DNA from: Puniceicoccales bacterium
GTDB taxonomy: Bacteria > Verrucomicrobiota > Verrucomicrobiia > Opitutales > LL51
Assembly: GCA_031284165.1 (NCBI GenBank)
Contig: JAITAK010000052.1
Location: 1-48,083 of the forward strand
Length of the DNA: 48,083 bases
Reading direction: 5' to 3'
Of this stretch, positions 1,572-48,083 are shown one piece after another (positions within the stretch are counted from its first letter, which is position 1; every line of letters begins with the position of its first letter). Made by a program: the position numbers and the translations under genes. The notes under the pieces are model-generated. The model was not told the DNA's origin, did not search any database, and worked only from the letters and a program-made list of their open reading frames with translations.

Positions 1572-2360
1572 CTAAATTTCAAATTTAACCTCAACGCCTT
1601 CGGGAGTAATTGCTTGATAATGTCCTCTAAATCCGTCGCCCGAATAATGAATCATGGCGACGGTTACTGGTCTTGTATGTTCGCTGTTTCCGCCATTTTG
1701 GCTGGGATCGGCGTGGAATGTACAGATAAAATTTCCTTGACTTTTACGTTTCGATCGCACGGAGATTGTACAATGGAGTACATCGGTTAAAAATGGAATC
1801 AGCGGAAAATCGAGCTGCATTTGCTTCGCTTTAATTTTCTTGTATAAATCATCATAGTTCTTCGCAAAACCTTCGCAGATGAGTTGATTAATTACATCCA
1901 TTCGATCAATCTCATCGATGCTTTTATTTTCCTTGTCGGCGGTATAAGCAATCCTATCCGCTAATTGCTTCAAAATTTCCAAAATTTCATTTTTACGAAT
2001 ACAGATAGTGGTTTTAGTTCTTTCCATTTCCTGGGCTTTTTTGGCCGTCAATACTGCCCAATAACCGCAACAGCCATCACTAGGAACATCTTTCAAGGCA
2101 TAGCCCTTTGGAATGATATCTCCTGTTTTTGTTTCAGACGTGTCGTCTAAAGGAAGCGTTTTATTTCGAGAAATAGTTATTTCTTGGATATCGGAATGGT
2201 TCGAGGAATGGCATACTTCTAGTTTCGTAGGCATTGCCATAAAAGCATCGCTACTACCGATGCCCACAATACCTATCCAATAAATACCTTTCCCCATCCA
2301 TTGACACATTGTAATCTTAATATAAAAAAAATAGTTATTATTGTCAATAAAATTTTGCAT
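1572..2360 (-). CDS. OTU-like cysteine protease, tandem paralogue
   Basis: 262-aa ORF. VPSDGCCGYWAVLTAKKAQ, YDDLYKKIKAKQMQLDFPL and FRGHYQAITPEGVEVKFEI align block-for-block with 381..1559. The ATG at 2358-2360 lies 1 nt after the mtaB stop (2362-2364), which suggests co-transcription. Confidence 0.6.
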   Translation of the reverse strand: MQNFIDNNNYFFYIKITMCQWMGKGIYWIGIVGIGSSDAFMAMPTKLEVCHSSNHSDIQEITISRNKTLPLDDTSETKTGDIIPKGYALKDVPSDGCCGYWAVLTAKKAQEMERTKTTICIRKNEILEILKQLADRIAYTADKENKSIDEIDRMDVINQLICEGFAKNYDDLYKKIKAKQMQLDFPLIPFLTDVLHCTISVRSKRKSQGNFICTFHADPSQNGGNSEHTRPVTVAMIHYSGDGFRGHYQAITPEGVEVKFEI

Positions 2361-7908: not shown

Positions 7909-9612
7909 TTACATGGCAATATTTTGGATCAGCGTCACAAGAGGAAGGAAGAGTCCAATCACGACAGAACCGACAAAACCTGCAAGAAATATCACCAATA
8001 CCGGTTCTATCATAGACGTTGTACGCGTAATAAGCTCGTCTAATTGCTCTTCGTAGGACAGAGCAACTCTATTCATCATTGCCCCGAGTTTTCCTGATTC
8101 TTCTCCTACCTTAATCAGTCCTTCAGCCATGACGGGAAATACATTGCGCCGACGCAAAGCCACCGTTAAAGACATGCCTTGTTGCACATCCCTAATGGTC
8201 AGGGCTAAGTTAGCTTTCATATAACAATTATTGATGCTTTCGCTAGCCATTTTCAGCGATTCAATGACGGAACAACCGCAGAGGAGGAGGTCCCCAAAGG
8301 TGCGAGAAAAAAGGACCACATCCCACTTCATTATACAATCTCCAAGTAGCGGTATTTTCAGGACGACGGCGTAAAACACTTTTTTAAGGAATGCGATTTT
8401 CTTAGCACCCAATATCACCAAAGGCATGATCAGCAAAGTTACCAATATTTCTTTGAGATGTGTCGTTACGAATCGGCTGCTGTCCAAAATGATCACGGTT
8501 AATGTTGGCATAACGTGAGCGCCAATTTGTTCAGCGATCACTTTTTCAAACCTGGGAACGACGAAAGTCGTTAGTAGCAAGATGACCATCGAAGAAACAG
8601 TGAAGACTGTGGCCGGATAAAGCATCGCCGAAATGATTTTTTTCTTAATGAAGATCTTTTTTTCCATCAAATTTGCCATTTTCGCCAATGTATTGGCTTG
8701 TTGTCCAACGGCTTCACCGGCGCGTACCATCGCAATTTCCGAGGTCTCAAACTTGACAACAGAAGACGTCAAAGCTTCAGAAAGAGAATTCCCTGCCTCG
8801 ATTTTTACGAATAAATCATGCAGGAAAAACCATGTATTTTCGTGACGTGCCTCTTGTTCTTTCAAAATAGCTAAGGAGGAACGAAGATCCATCCCCGCAT
8901 CTAAAAGTGCCGAAAGTTGGCGAATAATCTGTGCTTTCTTTTCAATTTTCAGTTTCAACGATCCTATAGCTTTCTTTTTTGCCGTTTTTCTCTCTGCAGT
9001 ACGCCGATATTTTCTCGATTGCTGTGGCGCAGAAGTATAAGGTGGCGCTTCATGAGCTTCCGGGTTCTTCATCGCGGCGTCTGTTGCTGCGTTTACCGCA
9101 GTATTTTCGCGATATTCCCGTAGTTGTTCCCCATCATAGCATATCTTGTGTCCATGCCTCTGCTGCCCTTGATTTACTGAGGTCATCGCTGAGGAATCTT
9201 TTTTATGTGTTATGTCCATGCCATCATCCAATACCGCCTGACTAAGCGTTAAAGGATCTGAGGAAAGCGATATTGCGCCCTCCTTAGCTTCAGTGTTGCA
9301 GTTGACGGTAGATATGTCTCTCGTGGAAGGGGCAGCCTCCAAAAGCCTAGAAGCGTCGTCTTTTAACGAGCAATCTGCGCTTTCCGAAAGCCCATCTCGA
9401 TGCGCTATCTCTTGAGCCCATGTGTTGGAGGAATCCGCAAAAGACCGGAAATGGGTCTTCCAAGGATGATCGTCTTGCAATGAATGTTCCGAGCATTCCC
9501 CGATCAATCCTTGTGTTTGCTCGTCTTTTCCCTGCATTTCATGGAAGAAGCTTTCCTGGTACCGATCAATTCTGTTCTGGAAAGCGTTTTTTAAAAACTG
9601 TCGAAATTTCAT
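7909..9612 (-). CDS. Type II secretion/type IV pilus platform protein, GspF/PilC family, with ~210-aa non-homologous N-terminal extension
   Basis: The C-terminal ~350 aa shows two T2SSF-like halves (QLSALLDAGMDLRSSLAILKEQ...; FGDLLLCGCSVIESLKMASES...GEESGKLGAMMNRVALSYEEQLDE) and three hydrophobic spans, ending ...GLFLPLVTLIQNI. The ATG at 9612 overlaps the upstream stop as ATGA. Confidence 0.75.
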   Translation of the reverse strand: MKFRQFLKNAFQNRIDRYQESFFHEMQGKDEQTQGLIGECSEHSLQDDHPWKTHFRSFADSSNTWAQEIAHRDGLSESADCSLKDDASRLLEAAPSTRDISTVNCNTEAKEGAISLSSDPLTLSQAVLDDGMDITHKKDSSAMTSVNQGQQRHGHKICYDGEQLREYRENTAVNAATDAAMKNPEAHEAPPYTSAPQQSRKYRRTAERKTAKKKAIGSLKLKIEKKAQIIRQLSALLDAGMDLRSSLAILKEQEARHENTWFFLHDLFVKIEAGNSLSEALTSSVVKFETSEIAMVRAGEAVGQQANTLAKMANLMEKKIFIKKKIISAMLYPATVFTVSSMVILLLTTFVVPRFEKVIAEQIGAHVMPTLTVIILDSSRFVTTHLKEILVTLLIMPLVILGAKKIAFLKKVFYAVVLKIPLLGDCIMKWDVVLFSRTFGDLLLCGCSVIESLKMASESINNCYMKANLALTIRDVQQGMSLTVALRRRNVFPVMAEGLIKVGEESGKLGAMMNRVALSYEEQLDELITRTTSMIEPVLVIFLAGFVGSVVIGLFLPLVTLIQNIAM

Positions 9613-10658
9613 GACATATTCCGCTTAAATTTGACCTTGCGTTTGGCGATGTTTTGGACGCTCTGTTTGACAGCGATATCGTCATTTTCGGCAATTTCGA
9701 TGCCAATAATATGTTCGAAAATGTCATCCAAAGTCAACACACCGACGATTTTATTTCCTTTCTTGACAAATGCAAGCTGCGTTAAGTTCTTTAGCAGAAC
9801 ATCGAGGGCATCGTCTACAAACATATCGTCGGAAAGAACCTTGGGAATCTCCATAATACGAGACAGTTGAATTTGGGCACCATTCGTGGCAAAAGCATGC
9901 AAAATTTTTCGGCGATGGACAATACCTACGAGATTTTCTGGATTGTTCGCATAAACAGGAATGCGACCCGTGGGAATGTTTTCATTATTAGCAATGAATA
10001 CGTCGCGAACGGTTGTATTCTTACTATAGGTGCTTAGATGATCCAGCGGAGTCATAATCTGAGCGATCACCGTGTAATCCATCTTCAGCGTATTTTCGAT
10101 CATCTTGCGTTCTTGATGGCTTAGTGTTCCATCGCGCACATTCTTTTCGGCAAGGAGCATGATCTCTCGATCAGAGTAGGCGGCATCGGCAGACTTTTTT
10201 CCTATAACCAGCCTTAAAATAAAACGGCAAATCTTGGAAAAGGGATACATCATTAAAACGACAAATTTGAGCAGATAAGCGGCAGGAATATACAATTTCT
10301 TCCGATAGATCAGACCGAGATTTTTAGGGAAAATTTCCGAAAATAACAAAATGATCACCGTTAGTCCCGTCGAAAAATAAACCAGCTTATCTTCACCGTA
10401 GATCTTGACGACCAGGCCTCCGGCGACAATGGCGCCAAAAGTATTGGAAAAAGTATTGAGCATGATGATTGCCGAGGAAGTTTCATCCATATTCTTTTTA
10501 CACTTTTCCATGGCGTGAGCAGCGCGTTTAGATTTGGAGCGAAGGTCTTCAAGTTCGATATCACTGGCACTGAAAAGGATCGCTTCGAGCAACGAAGCGA
10601 TTGTAGAGATACCTACCGTTAATGTTATGGTCAAAAGTAGGAGAAAAAAAGAACCCAT
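9609..10658 (-). CDS. CNNM/DUF21 transmembrane domain plus tandem CBS domains protein (TlyC/CorC hemolysin-family)
   Basis: MGSFFLLLLTITLTVGISTIASLLEAILFSASDIELEDL is a typical DUF21 start. Two CBS modules follow (IMTPLDHL...VGIVHRRKIL; IMEIPKVL...VGVLTLDDIFEHIIG). The ATG at 10658 is preferred. The longer ORF to 10820 would overlap the divergent ankyrin gene. No C-terminal CorC_HlyC domain is apparent. Confidence 0.75.
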   Translation of the reverse strand: MGSFFLLLLTITLTVGISTIASLLEAILFSASDIELEDLRSKSKRAAHAMEKCKKNMDETSSAIIMLNTFSNTFGAIVAGGLVVKIYGEDKLVYFSTGLTVIILLFSEIFPKNLGLIYRKKLYIPAAYLLKFVVLMMYPFSKICRFILRLVIGKKSADAAYSDREIMLLAEKNVRDGTLSHQERKMIENTLKMDYTVIAQIMTPLDHLSTYSKNTTVRDVFIANNENIPTGRIPVYANNPENLVGIVHRRKILHAFATNGAQIQLSRIMEIPKVLSDDMFVDDALDVLLKNLTQLAFVKKGNKIVGVLTLDDIFEHIIGIEIAENDDIAVKQSVQNIAKRKVKFKRNMS

Positions 10659-10803
10659 GGAACGATCTGACCATAATAGGGAACTGCAGCGGAGCGCAAT
10701 GAAATATATTGTAATTAAAATATTTATAAAAAAAATTGCTACTGATAAAAAATTTCGCAGAAATAATGAAATGCTTTCCGAGAAAATAAAAATTTTAAGA
10801 TTG

Positions 10804-12063
10804 ATGCGCTTTAGCGCCATCGCACTTCAGGTCATAGTCCATTGCCTTCAAGGAAGTTTAAATGCTTCATCATCAGCAGCGTCGGAAACGTTGAGCAAAT
10901 TTAACAGCAATCTTTATAAGGATACACCTTATTTAGACGCTGTCCGCCACGGCGATATACTCGAAATACAGCAATTTTTAAGCGATCCCTTACTGGATAT
11001 CAATCAGCAAAATAGTTCAGGAGAAACCGACTTAATGTTAGTGTTAGCGATGATCGCGATCTATGGACAATGTCGTGATAAAGGCCTGAAAAAAGCTCAA
11101 GATATTTTCAATTTATTAATGCAGCAACCCAAAAGGGATTGGAATTTACGCAACAACAACGGAGAAACTGCCCTCTGGCAGGCGACATCATTACGCCTTT
11201 GGGAATGCTTTAATGCCTTGTTACAGGTAGAAGCTGTAGACCCTAACATTCCCGATCAGAAAGGATTTACGCCCCTGACATTGCTCATAGAAATGAGGAA
11301 GGGGAGCCGCAATGATCCCGACAAAGCAAGTCTCTTGGAGATAATAAAATGTTTACTTCAATGTGAACGCGTCGATGTCAATCAAGAGGGAGATGGTGGA
11401 ATAACGCCATTAATTTTAGTCATTAAGTTGCAAGACGGGCTATTACTTTCCGCGTTTCTCGAATGTCGACGATTTTCCCTGGTTGCTTGTCAGAGCCATT
11501 CCTTACTTCAGCACCTTGGCAACCCACAGGGCTCACAGTTTCCCCGCAACACTTCACGTCTATTTCCATTGGAAGTGGCTTGGAAACAATATGCCTATTC
11601 TGATCGTCACTTCCTGCCTATATTCGATCTTATTTATCAGCGTATTTTGAGCGATGTTGATATGGAATTAATGCGCTACCTTAAACAAGTTAAGGAACGG
11701 TTATCGCAACTGAGCGATGTAAATTCGACAATTTGTGATGCACAAGACATACTTCAGACTATAGCAGCATTATACGAAACACCCGTAGTCATCAAATCTT
11801 ATGAATGCTGTAGCGATGATATACTTATCAAAGCTATCCGATATAAAATTAATTTCATTTCAAATCTGATTGAGGACAAAAATCTGCCACTCGTTTTGAC
11901 GATGAAGCGCATGTCTCAGCTAGGAAAGATCGTCACACAATTGGAGCAATTTTTGATATGTAGAAATCAACAAAATTTGGAATTGCTTAAAGATGCCTTG
12001 TATCAAGAACTTGACAATTATGAATATAAAGGTTATTTGAAAAAACAACTTAAAAAACTTTAA
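10804..12063 (+). CDS. Ankyrin-repeat protein
   Basis: ANK-like units are present: DAVRHGDILEIQQFLSDPLLDINQQNSSGETDLMLVL; NLRNNNGETALWQATSLRLWECFNALLQVEAVDPNIPDQKGFTPLTLLIE; DVNQEGDGGITPLILVIKLQDGLLLSAFLE. The listed TTG start at 10534 is antisense to the CNNM gene. In-frame ATGs at 10771 and 10804 are more plausible. MRFSAIALQVIVHCLQGSLNA is leader-like. Confidence 0.7.
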   Translation: MRFSAIALQVIVHCLQGSLNASSSAASETLSKFNSNLYKDTPYLDAVRHGDILEIQQFLSDPLLDINQQNSSGETDLMLVLAMIAIYGQCRDKGLKKAQDIFNLLMQQPKRDWNLRNNNGETALWQATSLRLWECFNALLQVEAVDPNIPDQKGFTPLTLLIEMRKGSRNDPDKASLLEIIKCLLQCERVDVNQEGDGGITPLILVIKLQDGLLLSAFLECRRFSLVACQSHSLLQHLGNPQGSQFPRNTSRLFPLEVAWKQYAYSDRHFLPIFDLIYQRILSDVDMELMRYLKQVKERLSQLSDVNSTICDAQDILQTIAALYETPVVIKSYECCSDDILIKAIRYKINFISNLIEDKNLPLVLTMKRMSQLGKIVTQLEQFLICRNQQNLELLKDALYQELDNYEYKGYLKKQLKKL

Positions 12064-12293
12064 GCCATATAAAATATAAGTCATTGAAAAATTAAACCGC
12101 CGGTAATGATCATTTTCAATAGCGGTATATCACCGATTTTAACGCCGCATTTTAGATAATTTTGATGCTTACATCCCCTGTTGACATAGAAAGTAAATAT
12201 TGAAAGTGAAAAATTTTTCCGTAAAAACAAAAAAATCTTGAAAATTAAACAATATTCATCATAACTTTTTTTATTCATTTGAAAGAGAAAATA

Positions 12294-13913
12294 ATGGCTA
12301 AAATAGTATTAAGAAAAATCGTCGGTGTTATATTACTCATGTATCCCTTAATTAGTCAGGGATGGAATGTGGTTATCGATGGTCGAGGGAATGTTTTAAC
12401 GGAAAATAGCGCAATTGATAAAGAAAAGGCGACTATTCTCATCCAGAATGGAGAATTTTCTGTCAGGTATGGACAATTTTGGCTTTATTGGCCTGACGTC
12501 ATTGGTGAGACCTATAATTTTAAGCAGTGTTATCTACCCGATGTGCCATTATTTGTGCCTGTCGATGGCGAGGAGTTCTATCAATACGTTCTTTCTAAGG
12601 AAGGGAACGTCAATAAAAGCAATGAAAGTTCATTAGGGAAAACGGAGAGCGAAATACTAAACCCCGATGGCGATGTCCTTTGTTGCCTTCAGTTGCTTAG
12701 AAACAAAAATGCGATGAAAGGTGAGAAAAAAAAGTTTATTGAACATGTCGTCTTTTACCGCTACAATACAGGCAACCGTTATTTTTTCCTCGCTCCCGCT
12801 GCAAAATTGCACAAACTTATTCAATTTGCCTTAGCGGGTGGTGCCAAAAGGGCTTTTAAACTTTATATCGGTATCGATGGAGAAGTGGATTCAAGTGAAG
12901 ATGCGAAAAATAAAATTACCAGCTTTCCTAACTGGTTTGCTCCGCGCAATTATTATATTAAAAATGACGGTAACGAATTTAATACGATGACCTTAAGGGA
13001 GAACGACGGTTTTGCACTCTCTGGGTTGGCAAGCCAAGGCTGGATCGGCTGGACGGGAAATGATACGGGATGGAAAGGAAAATATAGCCTCCCAGGAATT
13101 AATTTAGAAGATCAAAGCGTCGCCCATAAGGGAGAAAATCGGTCAATAACAACACAAGTACTTATAGGCGATGTGACACTACTAACGCACCACATCTTTT
13201 TAAATCAAGGTTCCATAGAAAAAATCCAAGAGGCATTATTTGGGAGCAATGATCGTCTCCCCGAAGGTCTAAAAGATTGCAATACTTCGAAATACGGCGA
13301 TTTGACTTCATTCGTCATAAAATTATTAGACGCCACTAGCGACGAAAATTCAAGAAAGTCTGTCTTAGGAAACGTTATAGAGCGGCTAGCGACAGAACTT
13401 GATGCTGAGACGAACCCTAGTCATGAATCGTCACAGTACGTCGTGAAAAAATTATCTGGAGAACAGGTGCCCTTCCGTACTTGGCTCGAAAATAAAAAAG
13501 CTGCTCAGAAAGAAGTTCCTCAAAGGAAAGTTCTTAAGGAAGAAACTCCTCAAAGGAAAGCGCCTAAGGAAGAAACTCCTCAAAGGAAAGTACTTAAGAA
13601 AGAAACTCCTCCAGGAAAAGCGCCTAAGAACAAAATTCCTCCGAATCCTCTGAAACAAATTCCCCAGGAAGAAAATTTTCAGAATAATCCGCTACCAGAC
13701 CTCTCTGACGAATACATCCAAAGCCATTTCAATAGCATTGCGAATGACATTGTCAAGAAATGTCGTACCGGAAGTATCAGCGCTGATGAAGCCGTCACTG
13801 AGCTGAAGCAACTCAAAGAACGTGGCATAAAATTGGGGATAATGGTTGTCAGAATTCAATCAGCTTTGTCGGAAGTAGAAAGGCATCGCATGTATCCTAA
13901 AAATTATAAATGA
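12294..13913 (+). CDS. Paralogous family member 1 (P1): unrecognised conserved N-domain, repeat linker and C-terminal helical module
   Basis: The first ATG is at 12294 (the listed 12279 is TTG) and is preceded by aagagaaaata. The hydrophobic leader ends in ISQGW. It shares the blocks ILIQNG, FWLY, YLPDVPLFVPV, DVLCCLQL, FYRY..NRYFFLAPAAKLH, GFALSGLASQGW, LPGINL, ITTQV and LLTHHIFLNQ with the ORFs at 14099, 22824 and 24891. Confidence 0.8.
   Translation: MAKIVLRKIVGVILLMYPLISQGWNVVIDGRGNVLTENSAIDKEKATILIQNGEFSVRYGQFWLYWPDVIGETYNFKQCYLPDVPLFVPVDGEEFYQYVLSKEGNVNKSNESSLGKTESEILNPDGDVLCCLQLLRNKNAMKGEKKKFIEHVVFYRYNTGNRYFFLAPAAKLHKLIQFALAGGAKRAFKLYIGIDGEVDSSEDAKNKITSFPNWFAPRNYYIKNDGNEFNTMTLRENDGFALSGLASQGWIGWTGNDTGWKGKYSLPGINLEDQSVAHKGENRSITTQVLIGDVTLLTHHIFLNQGSIEKIQEALFGSNDRLPEGLKDCNTSKYGDLTSFVIKLLDATSDENSRKSVLGNVIERLATELDAETNPSHESSQYVVKKLSGEQVPFRTWLENKKAAQKEVPQRKVLKEETPQRKAPKEETPQRKVLKKETPPGKAPKNKIPPNPLKQIPQEENFQNNPLPDLSDEYIQSHFNSIANDIVKKCRTGSISADEAVTELKQLKERGIKLGIMVVRIQSALSEVERHRMYPKNYK
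13509..13658 (+). repeat. 30-bp in-frame tandem repeat, 4 good plus 1 degenerate copies (KEVPQRKVLK/EETPQRKAPK...)
   Basis: The units are 13509-13538, 13539-13568, 13569-13598 and 13599-13628, with a degenerate unit at 13629-13658. The consensus is gaagaaactcctcaaaggaaagYRcYtaag. Confidence 0.9.
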
Positions 13914-14098
13914 TGACAGCATTAAAATTACGATTGATATGAACAAGGCTATGTTGCAGAACCGTAGCGATAAGCACCAATGTTTACCCATTCATTTGTA
14001 CTTATGAATTTCGATGAGACGCCGATATTTCTTAATAATGGGTTGTAAAGAAACGGGAGACTGTCGCAAACACTAAACAATTTGGAATGGAGAGGGAA

Positions 14099-16291
14099 AT
14101 GAATACCAAAGTTATAAAAAAAATCGCTGCAGGGATATTACTGATCTATCCCGCGATGATGGATGCGTGGGACGCTATGATCGATAATGACAATAATGCG
14201 ATTCTCGATAATACGACTAGTGCAGCCTATTGTCGGAATAATCCAAGCATTTTGATTCAAAACGGTTATCAATCGGTGAAATACGGAAAATTTTGGTTAT
14301 ATGAACCCGATCCTTGGCAAGGACGCCATTATGCTAAATCAACAACAGAAAAATTCTATTATTTATCCGATGTCCCTACATTTATGCCCGTCTATGATGA
14401 TGCTCATTATAAATACCCTAAAAGTAAAATCTTTGGCGGTATCAACATGGACGGATTGGGAACGAGTAGCAGCGAAATATTAATGCCCTATACCAATGTA
14501 ATTTGTTGCTTACAATTATCCAAAGACGGCGATAAGCGCTGGGGGAATAATTTTATAGAACAGATGATTTTTTACCGCTACAAGAAAAGTAATCGCTATC
14601 TTTTTTTTGCCCCTGCGGCTAAATTACATCACATCTTGGATAAAAACGACAGCGAAGAATTTGAACTTCATCTTAGCCTCAGTAAAACTATTTCCTGGGA
14701 ACAAGGCGCGAAAAATCAAATCAATGATTTTCCAGATTTTGACTTTCAAAAGCACTATGTTGATAAAAAAATTACCACATTTTATACCATGAATTTAGGA
14801 GAAAAAGATGGTTTTGCGCTTTCCGGTTTAGCAAGTCAAGGTCGAGCGAATTGGCTAGGGCGTGTTAGTGGAGGTCAATGCGGTCTTCCGGGGATTCGTT
14901 TACTTCAAACTGCAAACAATCAATGGATAACGACGCAAATTAAAGCCAAAGGCAGGACATTTCTCACACATCATATTTTCTTAAATGAAAATTTTACGCA
15001 ACAAGTGCATAATGCCCTGTTTCGTCCCAATAATCATTTACCGGAATGCTTGAGGGATTACGACACTGTAACTTATGGAGATCTCGTTTCATTCCTATGG
15101 AAATTGGAAAGTAATGAAGCGATTCGAAAGGATCCCATCCTCGCAGACGTTTTAGATAGGCTTCACGATGAGCTGAATAATGAAAAAAATCCGAGCCACG
15201 AACAATATTTGCAGTCGCAAAAGGATGACCCAACGTTGAAAGCTCAGGAAAACAAAGCATCATCTTTCCTTCAACAATTCAATACGTCGCCTTTAACAGG
15301 GCTAAAATTTAGCCCAGAACAGCTAAAGCAGGTCGATGCTGCTCAAGTAAAAAAGGACGTTACTCCAAGGAAAGGAACAAGTAAGATTCGAGAGAATCTT
15401 ATCTTAATTAAGAACGTTAAGAACGTTGCCGACGAACTGAATAATGAAGAAAATCCAAGCCACAAGCCATCCTTGCCATCGAAAAAGGATAGCCCGGCGT
15501 TGAAAGTCCAGAAAAATAAAAAATCACCTTTGCGACCATCCCTATTCAATACGTCGCCTTTGACAGGGCCAAAATTTAGCCAAGGTCCGCGAAGTGCAAA
15601 TGTGGCTCAAATGGAATATAATGTTTTTCACTCAAAGAGGAAAAAAAGCAAACTGAAAGCGAAAACCAAAAGCGATTCGGAAGATAAAAGTACGTTGAAA
15701 GAAGAAAAAATAATCCCTAAGCGGCGAAATACAGTTATCTCTAGCCCAGGGAATAAGAACAATATCACCGGTTTTAATTCAAAGAGGAAGGAAGCCGTTA
15801 AATCACCGGTTTTAATACGCCCTACAGCAAAAGGGGTGCCCTTTCATCAGAAAAATGAAAATGAATCGCCTACCATTGAAACAAAGAATGATGACAGCGA
15901 TTTCAACTTAAATGGAGAAAAAGCGATTCGAGAACAGGAGTATACTGAAGAGGAAAAAGAGGAGTCAGCGATTTCAACGCAAATGGAAACTAAAGGGATT
16001 CCGAAACAGGAAAATATGACTTTGCCTCGAAATGAAGGAGTTGCCCAAAGAACGTTAAAGTCAAACATATCATTTAATGAGTGCTTGAATGATATCATCA
16101 AGCGTTGTAAGACTCACAATATGACTATCGATAGAGCGCTGAAAATGTTAGATCACGCAAAACAACAGGCGTTAAATCAGGTAAAGACAAATTTCTCAGG
16201 GGAAAAGCAAAAAAATATCGAGAAAAGGATATTACAGCAAATTCTCAACGCGAAAAATGAGATTGAACGATCTCGCTCAGGGAAAAAATAA
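14099..16291 (+). CDS. Paralogous family member 2 (P2)
   Basis: It has the same colinear blocks: ILIQNGYQSVKYGKFWLYEPD, YLSDVPTFMPV, NVICCLQL, MIFYRYKKSNRYLFFAPAAKLH, GFALSGLASQG, GLPGIRL, WITTQI, FLTHHIFLNE and LPECLRD. The ATG at 14099 follows ggagagg. The ATG at 14087 is an alternative. The tail is long and Lys/Ser/Pro/Glu-rich. Confidence 0.8.
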   Translation: MNTKVIKKIAAGILLIYPAMMDAWDAMIDNDNNAILDNTTSAAYCRNNPSILIQNGYQSVKYGKFWLYEPDPWQGRHYAKSTTEKFYYLSDVPTFMPVYDDAHYKYPKSKIFGGINMDGLGTSSSEILMPYTNVICCLQLSKDGDKRWGNNFIEQMIFYRYKKSNRYLFFAPAAKLHHILDKNDSEEFELHLSLSKTISWEQGAKNQINDFPDFDFQKHYVDKKITTFYTMNLGEKDGFALSGLASQGRANWLGRVSGGQCGLPGIRLLQTANNQWITTQIKAKGRTFLTHHIFLNENFTQQVHNALFRPNNHLPECLRDYDTVTYGDLVSFLWKLESNEAIRKDPILADVLDRLHDELNNEKNPSHEQYLQSQKDDPTLKAQENKASSFLQQFNTSPLTGLKFSPEQLKQVDAAQVKKDVTPRKGTSKIRENLILIKNVKNVADELNNEENPSHKPSLPSKKDSPALKVQKNKKSPLRPSLFNTSPLTGPKFSQGPRSANVAQMEYNVFHSKRKKSKLKAKTKSDSEDKSTLKEEKIIPKRRNTVISSPGNKNNITGFNSKRKEAVKSPVLIRPTAKGVPFHQKNENESPTIETKNDDSDFNLNGEKAIREQEYTEEEKEESAISTQMETKGIPKQENMTLPRNEGVAQRTLKSNISFNECLNDIIKRCKTHNMTIDRALKMLDHAKQQALNQVKTNFSGEKQKNIEKRILQQILNAKNEIERSRSGKK
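15167..15580 (+). repeat. Internal ~150-bp duplication with 264-bp period inside the P2 linker
   Basis: Copy 1 (15167-15313) encodes DELNNEKNPSHEQYLQSQKDDPTLKAQENK...FNTSPLTGLKFS. Copy 2 (15431-15580) encodes DELNNEENPSHKPSLPSKKDSPALKVQKNK...FNTSPLTGPKFS. Confidence 0.85.
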
Positions 16292-16342
16292 CGAAAAAAC
16301 AATAAAACAATTAACATTAATTATTAAAATATGGAGATAAAA

Positions 16343-24890: not shown

Positions 24891-27113
24891 ATGGGTAACA
24901 AAATAAAAAAGAAAGTATGGGTTAGTCTTATATTGCTTCTAGCATCCCTAGGAGCGTACGGGTGGACTACAATTATTAATAAAGGAAAAACAATTTTAGG
25001 CAATGAAGTTAAAGAGTTCAGTTCCAATAATTTTGCAAGAATCAATAAGGAAAAATTGGTACACACCTCAGGGACGACGTTATCTATCGATTCCAAGATT
25101 TTGAGGTCTATTTCCCATGCGATATTTCGAAAAAATTTAACAATCCTTATCCAAAATAAAGATCAAAGTGTGCAATACGAACAATTTTGGTTATATGATC
25201 CTGATTTTATTCCTAAAGATTCCAACAAATCTCCATATAAGCATCCTTTCAGTCATTCCATTGAAGAAAAATGTACATTTTTTTATCTGCCAGATGTCCC
25301 TCTATTTGTTCCTGTACATAAAAACACATTTTATAACTATCGCAAAGTTGACGGAGGAATAAAAAATAAAAATGTGCTTGGAAAGGGTAAGAGTGAAAAA
25401 TTACGGTTCCATAGCGATGTGATATGTTGCATGAAGTTGTTTAGGGAAGAAAATGCAAAGGTTTTGGAAAAAACAAATAGAGTCGCTGAAAATAGAAATG
25501 AACAAAATGTTATTGAACAGATCGTTTTTTACCGCTACAGCCCCGCTAATCGCTATTTTTTCCTTTCACCGGCCGCTAAATTACATCATCTCATAGATGA
25601 TGTCCTTACTTTCGGTTGCCGAAAACCATTCGAATTACAGATGGGCATTGATGGAAGAATCGCTTCAGGGAAAAACGCCAAGACACGCATCGCAGATTTC
25701 CCAAATACATTCACTTTCCAAAATCACTACCTCATTCGGGAAACTTCTCATTTCTTTACAATGCACTTGAAGGAAAAAGGAGGCTTCGTACTGTCTGCTT
25801 TAGCCAATCAAGGTTGGATTGGTAATGAAACCGGTGGAAGTTATGGCCTTCCAGGTATTAATTTGGTGAGCGATACCCATAGCGTAGATCTCACCAATAA
25901 AGGACAAAATAAATGGGTGACGACCAAAGTCAGTATAGGGAATACGCAATTTCTGACGCATCACATTTTTTTAAATCAAACCTTCACGGCTAAACTTGAA
26001 TGGGTATTATTGGGGCAAAATTTCAATTTACTGGAGGGTTTGAAAGATTCCGATACAAAAGTTTATGGAGATTTGGTTTCCTTCTGGGCAAAATCGACGC
26101 TCAATGAAGAGATTCGCAAGGATTGGCTCCTGATGAATGTTTTCGAAAAAATTGAAGATGGACTTAAAAATAAAAATAATCCAAGCCATCAACAGTACAA
26201 AGATTATTGCCAAGCCTATGCCTATTACAAGGTCGCTCATGTCGTTCACGATTTTAAAGTCAAGGTCGAAGAAAGTATAAAACTGATTTCTCAAGATAGC
26301 GAAATCGTCAGTGAAATAGAGAAAATTACCCAAAAAATGAAGATCATTCAATGGAAAGATGAGGGAATCGCAGAACTCAATAAATTGGAAAATGACTTGC
26401 TTGACCAAGATGATCCGAGTGATGCGCCAATCGATACCATTGAAACCGGAAAAGCTTGTATCGAAGAAGAATTCCAAAGGGTATTACAGGCATTCGACGC
26501 TTCAAAGCGACCGTCACAGTTATTAAAGCCGGTGTCAAGAAAGAAACCCGTAGCTAAAAAGCCAACGCCCATAGCAAGAAGTTCAGCCAGGAGACAACAA
26601 AGACGGATCAGTCTATCCCAGAGACGCCAAAGATGGAACGCAATAAGAAGAAGAGCAAGAGCCCATAAAGGGAATTTAACGCCTCCCAAGGGCAGTTCTC
26701 GAAAGCCTACGCCAACATCACCAAGAACAATGCGTAATAAAAAAGCAGCCAATCCTCAAAATCAGAATAAGCAACCCCCAAAGCAAGATTCAAATAACCC
26801 AGAAGAAAACCAAGAGCCCGAGAAAAAATTCATGGGAGAACCAGAAAAATCTCAGTCTTTTGGATATACAACTACGGTGAATACACCTGAAAAAGGCAAA
26901 AATAAGCATTATACCAACGCCAAAGATCTCGTGAAAAAATTCAAGGAAAATTTGCAAAAGCGCATCGATAAGATGACAAAGCAATTGAATGAAATGCAGA
27001 AAAATCCCGATAACTTCGATTACTCAAAGGTTAATGCTATGCGCGAACAATTTTATCACCTGCTCAATACCTTAAAACAAGGCCAAGTTATGGCTAACGA
27101 TACATACCTGTAA
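24891..27113 (+). CDS. Paralogous family member 4 (P4) with basic Pro/Arg/Lys linker
   Basis: The first ATG is at 24891 (the listed 24852 is TTG). The leader is VWVSLILLLASLGAYGW. Shared blocks are ILIQNKDQSVQYEQFWLYDPD, YLPDVPLFVPV, DVICCMKL, IVFYRYSPANRYFFLSPAAKLH, GFVLSALANQGW, GLPGINL, WVTTKV, FLTHHIFLNQ, LLEGLKD and NPSH. It has a ~45-aa insertion after the leader. Confidence 0.8.
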   Translation: MGNKIKKKVWVSLILLLASLGAYGWTTIINKGKTILGNEVKEFSSNNFARINKEKLVHTSGTTLSIDSKILRSISHAIFRKNLTILIQNKDQSVQYEQFWLYDPDFIPKDSNKSPYKHPFSHSIEEKCTFFYLPDVPLFVPVHKNTFYNYRKVDGGIKNKNVLGKGKSEKLRFHSDVICCMKLFREENAKVLEKTNRVAENRNEQNVIEQIVFYRYSPANRYFFLSPAAKLHHLIDDVLTFGCRKPFELQMGIDGRIASGKNAKTRIADFPNTFTFQNHYLIRETSHFFTMHLKEKGGFVLSALANQGWIGNETGGSYGLPGINLVSDTHSVDLTNKGQNKWVTTKVSIGNTQFLTHHIFLNQTFTAKLEWVLLGQNFNLLEGLKDSDTKVYGDLVSFWAKSTLNEEIRKDWLLMNVFEKIEDGLKNKNNPSHQQYKDYCQAYAYYKVAHVVHDFKVKVEESIKLISQDSEIVSEIEKITQKMKIIQWKDEGIAELNKLENDLLDQDDPSDAPIDTIETGKACIEEEFQRVLQAFDASKRPSQLLKPVSRKKPVAKKPTPIARSSARRQQRRISLSQRRQRWNAIRRRARAHKGNLTPPKGSSRKPTPTSPRTMRNKKAANPQNQNKQPPKQDSNNPEENQEPEKKFMGEPEKSQSFGYTTTVNTPEKGKNKHYTNAKDLVKKFKENLQKRIDKMTKQLNEMQKNPDNFDYSKVNAMREQFYHLLNTLKQGQVMANDTYL

Positions 27114-27188: not shown

Positions 27189-27608
27189 TTATGAGGAACG
27201 ATGATTTTGCATCAAAAAAGCAATGGAATTATAATCTTTGAGTGCCTTCTTGATCACTTGAGTAATACTCTCCTGGGTTCCTTGAATGGGGATGGCCCTA
27301 CGTTGGCTGATCGGCTTATGTTCTATGACGATATCATTAGGAAATTTTAGAAATTTTTTCAGAGAAGTCACTTTTATTCCCTTAAATTTACCTTTAGGTT
27401 TACCGCCTACGGTTATTTTTCGTTCTGACAAATGGGTATGAGGAACGATTTGCCACGGATCGCCAAGCGATTTTGAGAACGCTGGATCGATGCTGCGTTT
27501 CCCTCGTTTCGAACTTTGCGAAACCTCCGCAATACGTTGCATTTCAAGAGCGGTGTCCTCGTGTTCTTCAACGATCATGCCATAGTCAAAATTATCCCTA
27601 GATTCCAT
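27189..27608 (-). CDS. Small hypothetical protein immediately downstream of the T3S chaperone (candidate chaperone partner or substrate)
   Basis: The ATG at 27608 (MESRDNFDYG...) is preceded by aggaaaggaaatcaca. The longer listed start at 27650 lies 20 nt inside the chaperone gene. The N-terminus is acidic and the centre is Lys-rich (GGKPKGKFKGIKVTSLKKFLKF). I recognise no family. Confidence 0.5.
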   Translation of the reverse strand: MESRDNFDYGMIVEEHEDTALEMQRIAEVSQSSKRGKRSIDPAFSKSLGDPWQIVPHTHLSERKITVGGKPKGKFKGIKVTSLKKFLKFPNDIVIEHKPISQRRAIPIQGTQESITQVIKKALKDYNSIAFLMQNHRSS

Positions 27609-27630
27609 TGTGATTTCCTTTCCTAATTTT

Positions 27631-28113
27631 TTAATTTTTCCATGATCCATACTTCTTCTTTGTTGGAATCGTTTTTAAATCTTCATCACTGAGCATTTCA
27701 GCTTCAGTGCAAATTTCGTCAATACGCTTCATCCACGCATCGACTACATCAACAAATACAGCTAAATCGTCTTCGAAAGCATTCGAATCGGCCAAAGGAA
27801 GCAAAAACTTTTTCTGTAAGACTAGAGTCTGCGTTTGCTTATCAATGGCGAATGTCGCACCGTTGGAAACTTTCCAAAAAAAATTGGCTTCTAGAAGTAC
27901 TTCCAAAACGAGCTCTTTCCCCATAAATGGAACTACGCTAATATAGGAATATACAATTAATGCGCCTTCTTCTTCATTGAGCTCTAAATTAAGTACAATT
28001 TTATCATCAAATAGAATTAAACAATGATTATTGGAGTCTAAGGTCAATGACGATAAATCCAGGACTTTTGCAAGTTCCTGAAGTAGATGATTTACTTCGT
28101 TTTTATAATCCAT
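27631..28113 (-). CDS. Class I type III secretion chaperone (CesT/SycE-like fold family)
   Basis: 160 aa and acidic. The pattern LLQELAKVLDLSSLTLDSNNHCLILFDDKIVLNLELNEEEGALIVYSYISVVP...LEVLLEANFFWKVSNGATFAIDKQTQTLVLQKKFLLPLADSNAFEDDLAVFVDVVDAWMKRI matches the canonical layout of CesT/Tir-chaperone family proteins as I know it. That layout is: announce the target, 'alien' example, L-L-Y, LLeaNlf, GatlalD...l.L. Confidence 0.75.
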   Translation of the reverse strand: MDYKNEVNHLLQELAKVLDLSSLTLDSNNHCLILFDDKIVLNLELNEEEGALIVYSYISVVPFMGKELVLEVLLEANFFWKVSNGATFAIDKQTQTLVLQKKFLLPLADSNAFEDDLAVFVDVVDAWMKRIDEICTEAEMLSDEDLKTIPTKKKYGSWKN

Positions 28114-28200
28114 ATCCCATTTCCATCACAACAATTGCATTAAATGCGTTAAAAACATAGCTGTTTAAATCAATAAAATGATTTTACATATTTTTGCAAC

Positions 28201-28269: not shown

Positions 28270-29364
28270 TCAATTCGCAGAAAGACTCAACGTGGGAACG
28301 ACAGCCATGGAATCACCTGCCTGTAGATTAAATAGGTAACTTATGAATAAAAATGTCGATTTGGAATTGAGGTCGTTGTCGGCAATATAAAACCATTTTC
28401 CGCGGTAAAAAATGCTGACAAACGCATTTTCAGGACGCGCCTTCGCTTCAGCACAATGGATGGCGATCCATTTCCCTGAAAGATGTTGATTCCAATGAAA
28501 TACGGCTCCATTTTCATCTTTTGTTTCCGTAACCAATCCGGTTTCAATGTCATGGAAGGGAACATCGACGGCATGGGAAAGATAAAATAGAACTTCAATC
28601 ATAGAACGCGTACGTATCGTTAGAATCGTATCGCGCTTATCTAAAGCATTGGAACTTAAATGAAACTCTGACTGATTGGGATCGAGACCCAAAATGGATT
28701 TCAATTCTTGTACTCCGGGATGATTGGAATCTGTAAACTGAACTACCCATTCTTTGGGATGATCAAAACGTGTACCAATGAGCAAACACTTTTGTTTATA
28801 CAAATTTTCAATGAGGTTTACGGCTTCACTAAAGGGCTCATAAACTGGCTTTGTAGTCGGTGTTGGCCCTGAGGCGCTGCTCGCATTATCGAGATCATTG
28901 ATGCTTTCAATGCACAAATTGAAAACCCGTTGCGGACTCCATCCGGATTGCATGAGACCAAAAACAACCGCTAAAGGTATCGGCGAAACCATTCTTTGGG
29001 TAAACTTTTCACCTTGAAGTGGAGTATAAAAAATGGTAGGATTTTGAAAAATCTCGCTATAGGCGATAATGCCCAACTCATAGTGGCCGGCATTTTTGTC
29101 GAACCCAAGCTTCGACCCACTAGGGCCAATACGCGTCGTCAATTTGCGATTTTCGCTAATGCTACTGACTTCTAAGAAATAGGGATTATCGCGATATTTG
29201 AGACGGACCATATTTAGTAATAGTTGTTCATCGGTGGTCTTCACAATTGCACTATTATATTCACAATGTGCTTTTTCGACAGAACTGGGTCCCACAGATT
29301 TACATCCTCCTATACAGAGAAAAGTCGCTATATACAAGGCTGGCCTTCTAAGTTTATTAATCAT
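28270..29364 (-). CDS. Hypothetical lipoprotein (364 aa)
   Basis: MINKLRRPALYIATFLCIGGCKSVG has a lipobox-like IGGC. The rest is globular with no recognised motif. Confidence 0.6.
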   Translation of the reverse strand: MINKLRRPALYIATFLCIGGCKSVGPSSVEKAHCEYNSAIVKTTDEQLLLNMVRLKYRDNPYFLEVSSISENRKLTTRIGPSGSKLGFDKNAGHYELGIIAYSEIFQNPTIFYTPLQGEKFTQRMVSPIPLAVVFGLMQSGWSPQRVFNLCIESINDLDNASSASGPTPTTKPVYEPFSEAVNLIENLYKQKCLLIGTRFDHPKEWVVQFTDSNHPGVQELKSILGLDPNQSEFHLSSNALDKRDTILTIRTRSMIEVLFYLSHAVDVPFHDIETGLVTETKDENGAVFHWNQHLSGKWIAIHCAEAKARPENAFVSIFYRGKWFYIADNDLNSKSTFLFISYLFNLQAGDSMAVVPTLSLSAN

Positions 29365-31198: not shown

Positions 31199-31579
31199 CT
31201 AAAAATGTCGGAAAATGGCATATTCTTTTTCTATGGGCTTATCAATAGGTTTGTCGCTTCCTCGTTCAGCTATTTTCGCAATACTGATCGCCAATGCATA
31301 TAATTGGGGAGAAATTGAAGCGATTGGCGTTTTTTCTTTAAGCGTAAGCTTCCATTTTTCTTGTCCCAAGCCTATTTCGAAGGAAGATCCTGCACTCATG
31401 GAATTTTTGATGCGGTTAACGAGTATCGTTGCGATTATCCCTTCATTGGGATCAGCATCGCTAGCATTTTTATATAAGTCCAAACCGACGAGGAACCCTT
31501 GAGTAACGACGCCGGCAACGAGTGCAAAAATTGAAAGCCCAATAATGACTTCAATTAATAAATATCCTCTTCGATTCAT
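31199..31579 (-). CDS. Prepilin-type N-terminal cleavage/methylation domain protein (T2SS pseudopilin / minor pilin)
   Basis: MNRRG|YLLIEVIIGLSIFALVAGV is the G-[FY]-x-L-I-E prepilin signature. The ATG at 31579 is preferred over the listed 31600. Confidence 0.7.
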   Translation of the reverse strand: MNRRGYLLIEVIIGLSIFALVAGVVTQGFLVGLDLYKNASDADPNEGIIATILVNRIKNSMSAGSSFEIGLGQEKWKLTLKEKTPIASISPQLYALAISIAKIAERGSDKPIDKPIEKEYAIFRHF

Positions 31580-31623
31580 TGGATAATATATCGTAATCAT
31601 TTGGAAGCAATTGGCAAGCGCGA

Positions 31624-33093: not shown

Positions 33094-35238
33094 CTAAGGT
33101 AGGTCGGAGGCAAATAAAATTTCTCGTTCCAAAAATATTCCCTGCATTTCAAAGACTTTTTGCCGCATAAGGCGAAGCAATGATTTTATGTCTTTTGCCA
33201 CAGCCCTGCGATCGGCGTTGATAATAAAATTAGCGTGTTTTTCGGAAACTTGAGCCCCGCCCATAATCATTCCCTTCAATTGGGCTTGCTCAATGAGCAT
33301 ACCGGCGAAATGAGAAGGAGGATTTTTAAAAATACTTCCCCCATTGGGTTGTGTGGGCTGACTTGCTCTACGCCATCGCATTCTGTGTTGAATTTTTTCT
33401 CTTAAAGATTGCGGAGATTCGCTCTGCGGGAAAAAAAACTCAGCTTCTAAAATTACGCCATCGCGAAAACCATAACGATAGGAAAATTTCATCTGCGCTC
33501 TTAAAATGGTCTTTACCGCTCCAGAACGATCGAGAAATCTTATGCGAATCAGATGGTCTCCTATAGACTGTTGATGAGCTCCTGCATTCATATAAAGTGC
33601 TCCACCTATAGTTCCGGGAATCCCCGCTAATTCCTCGCAACCTTGGAATCCTAAAGCGGCTACGCGTTTGACAAAGACTGCCAAAGGCATTGCTGCAGCA
33701 ACCGTGACGCTGCGATGATGCACTATAAATAAAGGAGGCATCTTTTTCAATGAAATGAAAACACCTTTAAAATCATCCAGTAATAAGTTGGATCCGTGAC
33801 CGATGATAGCGTAAGGAATGTTGAAATCTTGGAATATGCCCATCAAGATAAGAAGTTCTTCTTCCGATTGAGATTCAATCCACAGGTGCGCTTGTGCAGC
33901 GATTTGGAATGTATTGTAGTGTTTCAAAGAAAAGTTTTCTTGGAAAGCAATGGTGTGTTTTATTAAACGATCTTTGATTTGGGCTAAACATTGCTTCAAT
34001 TGCCAGCGTTGTGCCTGCTCATAGATGTCACCTGCACCGATGAAAAGGATGGCTTCAGGAAGCTCATCGCTTAGATCAAATTGCTGGAGATCGAGATCTT
34101 CCACATTGGTGATGTATTTGACCTTAGTGGATTGTGGAAGATCTTGGAGTATCCTTTCTGTCGTTCCTGTGGGAAGCAACGACTCGTTGGCGGCGTATAC
34201 GGGTAATAAGAGCGTCGCTTTGTCCTTGAAAATCTCAGCAAAATCCTGGGCGTATTGCTCGGTACGAGAATAACGATGAGGCTGGAAAACACATAAAATT
34301 TTTTTGCCGGGATGCATGTTTTGGAACTTTTCTATATAGCAAGCGATTTCCGTGGGATGATGAGCGTAATCTGTCCAAATTTCTATGCGGTGATGACCAA
34401 TACCTACTTCCCCTAAACGTTGGTGGCGACGAAAAACTGGGCTGGGAGACACTTCCGATAAAATGGTCGCCTCTCCTTCTGCGGCTAATTGTTCCAGGAC
34501 TTTTTGAACAATGGCTTTGTTTTCTAAATCATGAGACGCGCCATGCGTTGTCGAAGGTGTGGGCGCGAAAAATCGAGGCACAGAGAGGTTTTGAACGATA
34601 TGGCGCAGCCGTATATTACCTTCGGGGATAATAACCGCGCGCCGTGTTTGGGAAAATAATTTTTCAAATGCCGCGTCTAAATTTTCTGGCGAACCGTAGG
34701 CCTTAAGATGATCATCTTCGAGATTAATCGCCGCGGTCATGTAAGGATGGAATGCTTCGATCGTGCGGTCGCTCTCATCGACTTCGCACAGCAGGTATGG
34801 ACTGTCCTTAATAAAAAGGGCAGGTGGTTTTCGATGATCTCTAAAAAATCCCCCTAAGATGTAACTACACGTCGGCCAATGATCAATCAACGCAGCCGTT
34901 GTGGTAGTTTTGCCATGAGATCCTGTAATAGCGACGACTTTTTTTTGTGCACAAAACTTCGCTAAAAAATATCCACGCCGAATGACAGGGATATTTCTTT
35001 CTCGGGCAATCCGTAGCCAGGGATGATTCTCCTTAACGGCACTGGAAAAAATGACGCCGTTGCTGTGCTGCGGGAACTGTTCACAGATCACAATTTGTTG
35101 AGCTTCTAAAAATCGTTCCCACGGCAGGGCAAGGGCATCGTCAAAGCCATAAACGCGATGCCCCTGCTGTCGAACATAAGATGCTAAAGGCGCCATACCC
35201 ATACCACCAATACCTAAAAATAAAAATTGCTTGCTCAT
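33094..35238 (-). CDS. murC-murB: Fused UDP-N-acetylmuramate--L-alanine ligase (MurC, N-terminal) / UDP-N-acetylenolpyruvoylglucosamine reductase (MurB, C-terminal)
   Basis: The N-terminal half has FLGIGGMGMAPLASYVRQQGHRVYGFD and the P-loop ITGSHGKTTTTA (MurC). From about aa 430 it has FSLKHYNTFQIAAQA, IIGHGSNLLLDD, ELAGIPGTIGGALYMNAG and GGSIFKNP (MurB). It is a single 714-aa frame with no internal stop. Confidence 0.85.
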   Translation of the reverse strand: MSKQFLFLGIGGMGMAPLASYVRQQGHRVYGFDDALALPWERFLEAQQIVICEQFPQHSNGVIFSSAVKENHPWLRIARERNIPVIRRGYFLAKFCAQKKVVAITGSHGKTTTTAALIDHWPTCSYILGGFFRDHRKPPALFIKDSPYLLCEVDESDRTIEAFHPYMTAAINLEDDHLKAYGSPENLDAAFEKLFSQTRRAVIIPEGNIRLRHIVQNLSVPRFFAPTPSTTHGASHDLENKAIVQKVLEQLAAEGEATILSEVSPSPVFRRHQRLGEVGIGHHRIEIWTDYAHHPTEIACYIEKFQNMHPGKKILCVFQPHRYSRTEQYAQDFAEIFKDKATLLLPVYAANESLLPTGTTERILQDLPQSTKVKYITNVEDLDLQQFDLSDELPEAILFIGAGDIYEQAQRWQLKQCLAQIKDRLIKHTIAFQENFSLKHYNTFQIAAQAHLWIESQSEEELLILMGIFQDFNIPYAIIGHGSNLLLDDFKGVFISLKKMPPLFIVHHRSVTVAAAMPLAVFVKRVAALGFQGCEELAGIPGTIGGALYMNAGAHQQSIGDHLIRIRFLDRSGAVKTILRAQMKFSYRYGFRDGVILEAEFFFPQSESPQSLREKIQHRMRWRRASQPTQPNGGSIFKNPPSHFAGMLIEQAQLKGMIMGGAQVSEKHANFIINADRRAVAKDIKSLLRLMRQKVFEMQGIFLEREILFASDLP

Positions 35239-47637: not shown

Positions 47638-48083
<446 letters not shown>

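Follow-up and report, generated by a model that had tools for sequence, protein, structure and literature searches.

Chaperone gene and surroundings

The window is a stretch of 48,083 nucleotides with a G+C content of 40%, from a termite-gut 'Puniceicoccales' (Verrucomicrobiota) genome; 95% of the words sampled from it were found in one termite-gut metagenome run, X1. Its housekeeping genes are murE-like, a murC/murB fusion, malQ, priA, radC, gpsA, nrdR, der, ppdK and murA-like, and it also encodes GspF, a pseudopilin and an ankyrin-repeat protein. At the right end (47638-48083) a 16S rRNA gene begins, of which the window has 446 nt; a search with this fragment gave conserved-word matches only. 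Four features concern us here: a gene for a chaperone of type III secretion systems (T3SS), a small basic ORF directly downstream of it, a conserved element upstream of it, and an array of four paralogues, P1–P4, on the opposite strand.

The chaperone gene (27631..28113, minus strand) has an ATG start and encodes an acidic protein of 160 aa (pI 4.45) of the class-I, CesT/ExsC-like type. In a Pfam profile scan it matched PF05932 (CesT) with 78.6 bits, where the cut-off is 22 (E 5.5e-22), and the match extends over profile positions 1–119 of 119. NCBIfam gave weak, sub-threshold matches to SicP and YscB. Sequence matches in the PDB were ExsC (1e-6, residues 1–130) and CesT (5e-5), with SrcA/STM2138, Tir chaperone and SicP as further matches; identity to ExsC is only ~27%.

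The structure was modelled with AlphaFold2 from a 16-orthologue alignment (pLDDT 77.4, pTM 0.72). The predicted fold runs helix, three strands, helix, two strands and a long helix (H3-18, E30-35, E39-46, E51-59, H66-75, E87-91, E96-104, H110-147), matching the alpha-beta-beta-beta-alpha-beta-beta-alpha order of class-I chaperones. Class-I T3SS chaperones make up 44 of the 47 best Foldseek matches of this model in the PDB, the other three (ranks 32, 43 and 47) being two structural-genomics proteins of unknown function. First comes ExsC from the ExsC–ExsE complex (E 6e-10, target TM 0.82), followed by SicP, SchA, VecA, SrcA, SycH, CesT, YscB and SigE; SpcU, SycE, SycT, InvB and Spa15 are also in the list. 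Sequence and predicted fold thus agree that this ORF is a CesT/SycE-type class-I chaperone, as an earlier note on this DNA had proposed from the layout of the protein.

The chaperone itself is not new in kind, since NCBI already annotates relatives automatically as T3SS chaperones. Its close homologues (n = 28) are all metagenomic, and the full-length ones are 57–82% identical to the window copy, with 36 invariant positions among orthologues and a conserved C-terminal tail, YGSWK[YN]; the protein also has an acidic linker. The named close homologues come from NCBI metagenome-assembled genomes (MAGs) called 'Puniceicoccales bacterium', where they are annotated 'type III secretion system chaperone'. 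One is labelled 'Holosporaceae', which is probably a binning error. A more distant, higher-GC orthologue (P0032) lies on a 1.9-kb contig without gene context. Recorded chaperones reach at most 82% identity to that of the window, and none of the RNA runs searched contained the chaperone locus.

Among 1.84 billion representative proteins, a profile search with the family found 2400 at E<=1e-3, of which 603 reach E<=1e-10 and only three, all of this lineage, E<=1e-30. One family member, P0047, is an orphan amid clpXP/tig/lon on a 1.6-Mb contig.

The paralogues P1 (12279-13913), P2 (14087-16291), P3 (22824-24635) and P4 (24852-27113, plus strand) are ~40% identical over their first 350–445 residues and have variable C-termini. 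P4 converges on the small ORF, as the earlier note had described and reading the window confirmed; the gap between them is 75 nt. The same note took the chaperone to mark the locus as an effector region and counted P1–P4 among its possible clients. Put in full, the chaperone would serve P1–P4, and perhaps a 2120-aa giant protein, in a T3SS effector island. The closeness of P4, the lineage-specific character of P1–P4 with their variable C-termini and lack of Pfam domains, and the nearby ankyrin-repeat protein speak for such an island; we nevertheless consider it highly improbable. All four N-termini open with an n-region rich in lysine, followed by a hydrophobic core and, ahead of a conserved Trp, by small residues that resemble a cleavage site (e.g. 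MGNKIKKKVWVSLILLLASLGAYG followed by W); that of the giant protein is similar. Read by eye, P1–P4 and the giant protein have the appearance of Sec substrates, and Sec-type signal peptides are normally absent from T3SS substrates. The array lies on the strand opposite to the chaperone, and the GspF and pseudopilin of the window would provide another export route. Within 10 kb of the chaperone, no related locus has a P1 or P4 homologue, so adjacency of the array is specific to this genome; relatives have pheS-BatA in its place. Neither claim was therefore supported: the relatives' module sits in a housekeeping block without P1/P4 homologues, and the N-termini of P1–P4 resemble Sec-type signal peptides. 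P1–P4 should not be annotated as T3SS effectors on account of their chaperone neighbour.

Gene pair and upstream element

The small ORF (27189..27608, minus strand) encodes a basic protein of 139 aa (pI 9.8), our candidate for the cognate client of the chaperone. Its ATG lies just past the chaperone stop codon, after a spacer of 22 nt (27609..27630) with a Shine-Dalgarno-like AGGAAAGGA 8 nt before the ATG. We read this arrangement as translational or operonic coupling of the two genes, in line with the earlier note, which had called this same-strand neighbour overlapping or coupled.

Chaperone and small ORF are adjacent in every relative examined, with spacers of 9–33 nt by gene coordinates. 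In 13 related loci (10 non-duplicate) the module lies within a housekeeping block, typically ordered murC/B fusion, malQ, pseudopilin, PpiD-like, ~360-aa lipoprotein, chaperone, small ORF; beyond the small ORF come convergent pheS and then BatA and further genes, where the downstream flank was read. The loci sharing this murC/B-to-pheS order are L002-L008, L011 and L025-L028. Two others, L009 and L010, have a chaperone 58% identical to the window's and different flanking genes throughout (dxs, sufBC, amine oxidase), and the chaperone is still paired with a small ORF, of 117 aa. Since the pair is kept where the whole neighbourhood differs, the likely client of the chaperone is the small ORF, in a layout like that of ExsC–ExsE. 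The lipoprotein encoded at 28270-29364 was also considered as a client and rejected, since it carries a lipobox and L009/L010 do not have it.

The genes of the block differ in rate. Against 57–82% identity to the window copy for the chaperone, the lipoprotein shows 37–65% and the small ORF 30–49% by BLAST, which no longer detects it in the most distant loci; across ten aligned orthologues the small ORF is 19–46% identical to the window copy. A fast small ORF beside a slower chaperone suggests the rates typical of a substrate and its chaperone.

Orthologues of the small ORF range from 93 to 159 aa and are all basic (pI 9.7–10.5), and all are without a hydrophobic N-terminal segment or signal peptide. 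After Met1, only R63, K64, R103 and Y126 are invariant among the 10 aligned orthologues. An [LI]xxR[KRT] motif occurs twice in the window's small ORF, once at residue 60 and once at residue 100; R63/K64 and R103 fall within these two copies. All seven independent orthologues have the motif at least twice, with two conserved copies 39–47 aa apart; none of 5000 composition-preserving shuffles of the small ORFs reached seven of seven, a significance that is overstated because the motif was defined post hoc. The copies read HLSERKITV and PISQRRAIPI in the window, KSLRNRKAKLL and KTLKSRKPKLI in L009, and KKLSQRKARCL and KSLSQRTIRQI in L002. Motif positions span 26–123, within the usual range of chaperone-binding domains. 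A conserved LKDYNSI helix lies at the C-terminus. Modelled alone from the single sequence, the small ORF gave no confident fold (pLDDT 37.8) and is predicted to be largely unstructured. The N-terminus of the window copy is acidic (MESRDNFDYGMIVEEHED) and not a textbook type III secretion signal.

Profile searches with the small-ORF alignment gave no match in Pfam, PDB or PADLOC and detected no homology to ExsE, YscM or LcrQ, and a word-based (k-mer) protein search returned only the small ORF itself. A toxin-antitoxin or anti-phage defence pair was rejected, as neither the chaperone nor the small ORF matched in PADLOC, and the lipoprotein did not either.

The small ORF might instead be a co-chaperone or adaptor, with the real substrate encoded elsewhere, e.g. 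a conserved 372-aa protein downstream of sctV in related genomes. Heterodimeric class-I chaperones do exist (SycN–YscB, PDB 1xkp, is among the Foldseek matches), and the conserved YGSWK tail of the chaperone could dock a third partner. Against this, the small ORF has neither a chaperone-like fold nor a family match, is predicted to be unstructured and evolves far faster than the chaperone. We judge a co-chaperone role improbable and keep the small ORF as the likely client.

Upstream of the chaperone, 66 nt before its ATG, lies a 21-nt element, TTGCAAAAATATGTAAAATCA (28179..28199, minus strand), which holds TG[CT]AAAA twice, 12 nt apart start to start. It comes after a T-run that ends the lipoprotein gene. 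Across 10 aligned upstream regions it is nearly invariant and exceeds the coding sequence in conservation. The window has a single copy, with 0 of 100 shuffles matching, and the element occurs once per locus, upstream of the chaperone, in eight loci. Promoter calling placed no canonical sigma-70 site at the element, and together with reading by eye it left sigma-54 and canonical sigma-70 interpretations unconvincing; no intrinsic terminator was called. The element is probably the promoter or operator of the two-gene operon.

Type III secretion genes in the window and in related genomes

That the window holds no sct/ysc apparatus gene, as the earlier note had stated, was upheld in two ways. Pfam scans covered the listed ORFs of at least 120 aa, a size above that of SctF, SctI and SctS, minus short ORFs nested in larger genes, and gave no match to a T3SS apparatus family. 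In tblastn, protein queries from L013, which is a complete T3SS locus, and SctV and YscY from a termite-gut locus (L020) found only the chaperone in the window. Neither the 48-kb window nor ~200 kb of related loci contains an sct gene. The note had also mentioned T3SSs in this part of the bacterial tree, and rightly: NF-T3SSs are documented in Verrucomicrobia (PMC3459982), and the window organism belongs to a verrucomicrobial (PVC) lineage. In the papers searched we found no report on point for T3SS in Puniceicoccales, Opitutae or termite Verrucomicrobia. The note's interpretation stands in part: the chaperone identity, the coupled small ORF and the PVC lineage are retained, the effector region and the P1–P4 clients are dropped, and the T3SS elsewhere in the genome, which the note took the chaperone to imply, is plausible.

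The closest named relative of the chaperone outside the lineage is P0035 (Desulfothermus sp., WP_461833103.1; profile E 1.5e-25), 35–38% identical over 122–140 aa. Unlike the window gene, it belongs to a complete T3SS cluster of the Ysc type, with an 866-aa protein on one side and LcrR/LcrG-like genes on the other; the cluster includes SctW, SycN, YscX, YscY, SctV, LcrR, LcrG-like, LcrH-like, SseC and SctC. With the SctV of this cluster as query, SctVs labelled Opitutales/Opitutaceae were found among the best 120 of 8000 matches, and none among these 120 had a Puniceicoccales label or belonged to the termite clade. One SctV, P0310, came from an unrelated ENA sample.

Species-representative genomes were then scanned with a query in which the window chaperone was joined to the last 211 residues of an Opitutales SctV. 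SctV was found in four termite-gut Puniceicoccales MAGs (Pcl387_bin38, Pcl387_bin136, Roe453_bin126 and Ct408_bin121) and in five Opitutales/Opitutia/Verrucomicrobia MAGs. The chaperone was found in four other termite-gut Puniceicoccales MAGs: Im510_bin18, Pcl387_bin18, Cc175_bin33 and Gsp477_bin23. No MAG in the scan had both, a weak absence because the scan matched exact 8-residue patterns and the MAGs are incomplete. NCBI protein accessions of the chaperones and of the SctVs are tens of thousands apart, which places them in different MAGs. The octapeptide HQELTDEI, conserved throughout the termite-gut SctV clade, is absent from all four chaperone MAGs, weak evidence that these are without that sctV.

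The termite-gut sctV encodes 699 aa (FHIPEP, 760 bits) and follows a YscY-like TPR gene; in the four SctV MAGs this yscY-sctV pair is flanked by cysS and the gene for the 372-aa protein, of unknown function. Neighbours within 10 kb are fabF, a lipid-A gene and prs, joined in two of the four MAGs (L020 and L021) by another CesT-family gene, which differs from the first. Among the four, SctV is 93–95% identical and cysS 60–71%. The termite-gut SctV is 62% identical to SctV of the Ysc-type cluster, and YscX/YscY accompany it. In these MAGs, then, T3SS genes are scattered among housekeeping genes, and an 'orphan' chaperone is unsurprising.

Run X1, the source in which the window was found, also contains fragments related to this locus. 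Contigs of 190–629 nt are tiled along yscY, sctV and the gene for the 372-aa protein at 82–92% identity, with Pcl387_bin136 the closest sctV. Their depth is 3–6, against 6–8 for pieces of the window. Given their closeness to Pcl387_bin136, and the ceiling of 82% identity among recorded chaperones, these sctV fragments probably belong to a second population. As no MAG was found in both sets, the one with the chaperone and the one with SctV, a T3SS in the chaperone's own genome is only plausible, with chances about even or slightly better.

The same lack of overlap fits a reading without an injectisome, in which an orphan CesT-fold protein sequesters or stabilises a small basic protein, be it a nucleic-acid binder or a regulator. 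CesT–CsrA and Chlamydia Scc4–RNA polymerase are parallels; here secretion would have been lost or never present. No related locus has an sct gene near the module, which is surrounded by housekeeping genes and has a strongly conserved upstream element to itself; P0047 is likewise an orphan, among clpXP/tig/lon; the client is K/R-rich with a pI of about 10; and CesT itself binds CsrA (PDB 5z38, among the Foldseek matches). Weighing against these points, all close relatives of known role, by structure and by sequence, are secretion chaperones, and the nearest relative with gene context, P0035, is inside a T3SS cluster. The related Puniceicoccales have sctV, T3SS genes that are dispersed and one more CesT paralogue that looks like an orphan, and with dispersal of this kind the missing linkage of the module is expected, not telling. 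Moreover, a fast-evolving, disordered client resembles a substrate and not a housekeeping regulator. We regard this T3SS-independent pair as possible, if doubtful. Were the genome indeed to have no T3SS, the module would be a clear case of a secretion-chaperone fold that a reduced genome has retained for a different task.

Module as a candidate chaperone–substrate unit

We lean modestly towards a self-contained two-gene operon: a class-I T3S chaperone and its cognate small basic client, with their own upstream element. In this operon an acidic chaperone homodimer would bind the client through the two [LI]xxR[KRT] motifs, one per protomer, much as ExsE binds around the ExsC dimer. The chaperone would keep the client unfolded and soluble and would present the client to a type III export apparatus whose genes lie elsewhere in the genome; as in Chlamydiae, the T3SS genes of the group are spread among housekeeping genes. 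The client could be a small secreted regulator of the ExsE/YscM/LcrQ kind or a small effector delivered into a eukaryotic host, in that case probably a termite-gut protist. Chaperone family and fold, gene pairing, client properties and the dispersed yscY-sctV of termite-gut Puniceicoccales are directly supported; from these we infer binding, secretion and a T3SS in this very genome.

ExsC–ExsE of Pseudomonas aeruginosa (PDB 3kxy) is the closest known model, ExsC being both the best sequence match and the best fold match of the chaperone. As in exsC-exsE, the chaperone gene is directly followed by a gene for a small protein without a fold of its own, and the window client has a twofold basic motif, ~40–47 residues apart. 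In the paper on the 3kxy structure, ExsE is said to wrap around the ExsC dimer, and it reportedly has two Arg-x-Val-x-Arg motifs, each contacting one ExsC protomer. These ExsE motifs are ~49 residues apart. The client family differs from ExsE in size (93–159 aa versus 81) and has no detectable homology to it. The chaperone, at only ~27% identity, differs from ExsC in its extra acidic linker and YGSWK tail. Unlike the ExsC–ExsE–ExsD–ExsA system, the window shows no ExsD and no AraC-type ExsA domain in the ORFs scanned, and no T3SS operon lies near its chaperone. ExsE itself is an 81-aa secreted protein that sequesters ExsC (PMC7303211). SycH–YscM2/LcrQ of Yersinia (PDB 1ttw) is an analogous system, although the window client has no YscM/LcrQ homology.

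With the class-IA chaperones CesT, SicP, SrcA, SchA and VecA the window protein shares a full PF05932 match, small size, acidity and the alpha-beta fold, and its gene likewise stands beside that of a candidate substrate. It differs from them in its housekeeping neighbourhood, far from any apparatus gene. In this last respect it resembles the chlamydial chaperones Scc1/Scc4, Slc1 and Mcsc; Chlamydiae, too, are PVC bacteria with T3SS-related genes scattered among housekeeping genes. However, no chlamydial chaperone is among its sequence or fold matches, and the sctV of the related termite-gut MAGs is Ysc-like.

Worth following are the family of the client, the conserved probable operator and the T3SS genes that are dispersed in termite-gut Puniceicoccales. 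A working chaperone–substrate unit would give a handle on how uncultured verrucomicrobial symbionts of the termite gut talk to their eukaryotic hosts, with one client, one chaperone and one regulatory element to test. It would also mean that, in the PVC group, Chlamydiae are not alone in having dispersed T3SS genes; the chlamydial scattering was described earlier (PMC3459982).

A bolder version goes further. Termite-gut Puniceicoccales would join Chlamydia as a second lineage of the PVC group whose injectisome regulon is dispersed, and the module, under its dedicated promoter or operator, would supply a lineage-specific, small basic effector with NLS-like patches that is delivered into a protist, perhaps into its nucleus; these Puniceicoccales might even belong to the 'Nucleococcus cluster'. 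This is speculative, and we think it unlikely as a whole. The 'Nucleococcus cluster' is protist-endosymbiotic and includes intranuclear symbionts (PMC8204192). The NLS-like patches of the small ORF are KRGKR, PKRKI and RKRKIRQ.

The chaperone gene, its upstream block and the adjacent small ORF

At its C-terminus (window positions 27631–27660) the CesT-family chaperone carries a YGSWK[YN] tail that is conserved and is preceded by a variable acidic linker. The tail has no structure in the predicted chaperone model (pLDDT <50) and could be a docking motif. On the 5′ side of the chaperone gene lies an intergenic block, TTGCAAAAATATGTAAAATCA (28179–28199, minus strand), that is better conserved among the relatives than the coding sequence and occurs only once within the window; locus L009 carries the related TTGTAAAAAT..ATTGCAATTTTACA. 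The small ORF directly 3′ of the chaperone gene (27189–27608) and its orthologues have variable N-terminal halves with K/R patches, among which KRGKR, PKRKI, RKRKIRQ and RRKKKIRQ resemble, as sequences, eukaryotic nuclear localisation signals.

Paralogous proteins of the window

Four paralogues, P1–P4, are encoded on the plus strand at 12279–13913, 14087–16291, 22824–24635 and 24852–27113, to both sides of a gene for a 2120-aa protein (16331–22693, plus strand). P1–P4 share ∼40% mutual identity over their N-terminal 350–445 aa and have variable, K/R/Q-rich C-termini. Judged from their residues, the N-termini of all five proteins resemble Sec-type signal peptides. No Pfam domain was found in any of the five, and no homologues were present among the related loci fetched.

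Two further paralogues, at 381–1559 and 1572–2360 (both minus strand), are similar at their C-termini, with 33% identity over 220 aa. Both contain DGCCGYWAV ... GHYQAI, which resembles the signature of OTU-type cysteine proteases (deubiquitinases) and makes the pair candidate proteases of this type; neither product has a Pfam match. Signal-like N-termini were also seen on both.

Other genes of the window and the sctV loci

A MurC-MurB fusion protein (33094–35238, minus strand), with Mur ligase, FAD_binding_4 and MurB_C domains, is kept in all relatives; such a fusion is also known in Verrucomicrobium spinosum. The conserved block adjoining the chaperone includes a pseudopilin with an N-methylation motif (31199–31600, minus strand), which, like a GspF-type platform protein (7909–9612, minus strand), is a component of type II secretion or type IV pili. 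An ankyrin-repeat protein is encoded at 10534–12063 (plus strand). A bacterial 16S rRNA gene is truncated by the window end, so that only its 5′ 446 nt are present (47638–48083, plus strand; Rfam, 377.6 bits); this fragment could show where the organism stands with respect to the 'Nucleococcus cluster' of protist endosymbionts.

In the termite-gut Puniceicoccales MAGs with sctV (loci L019–L021 and L024), yscY-sctV stands alone, flanked by cysS and an unknown 372-aa gene. Across these MAGs, whose G+C content spans 46–57%, SctV is 93–95% identical, whereas cysS reaches only 60–71%. A second CesT paralogue lies at L020:1134–1631.
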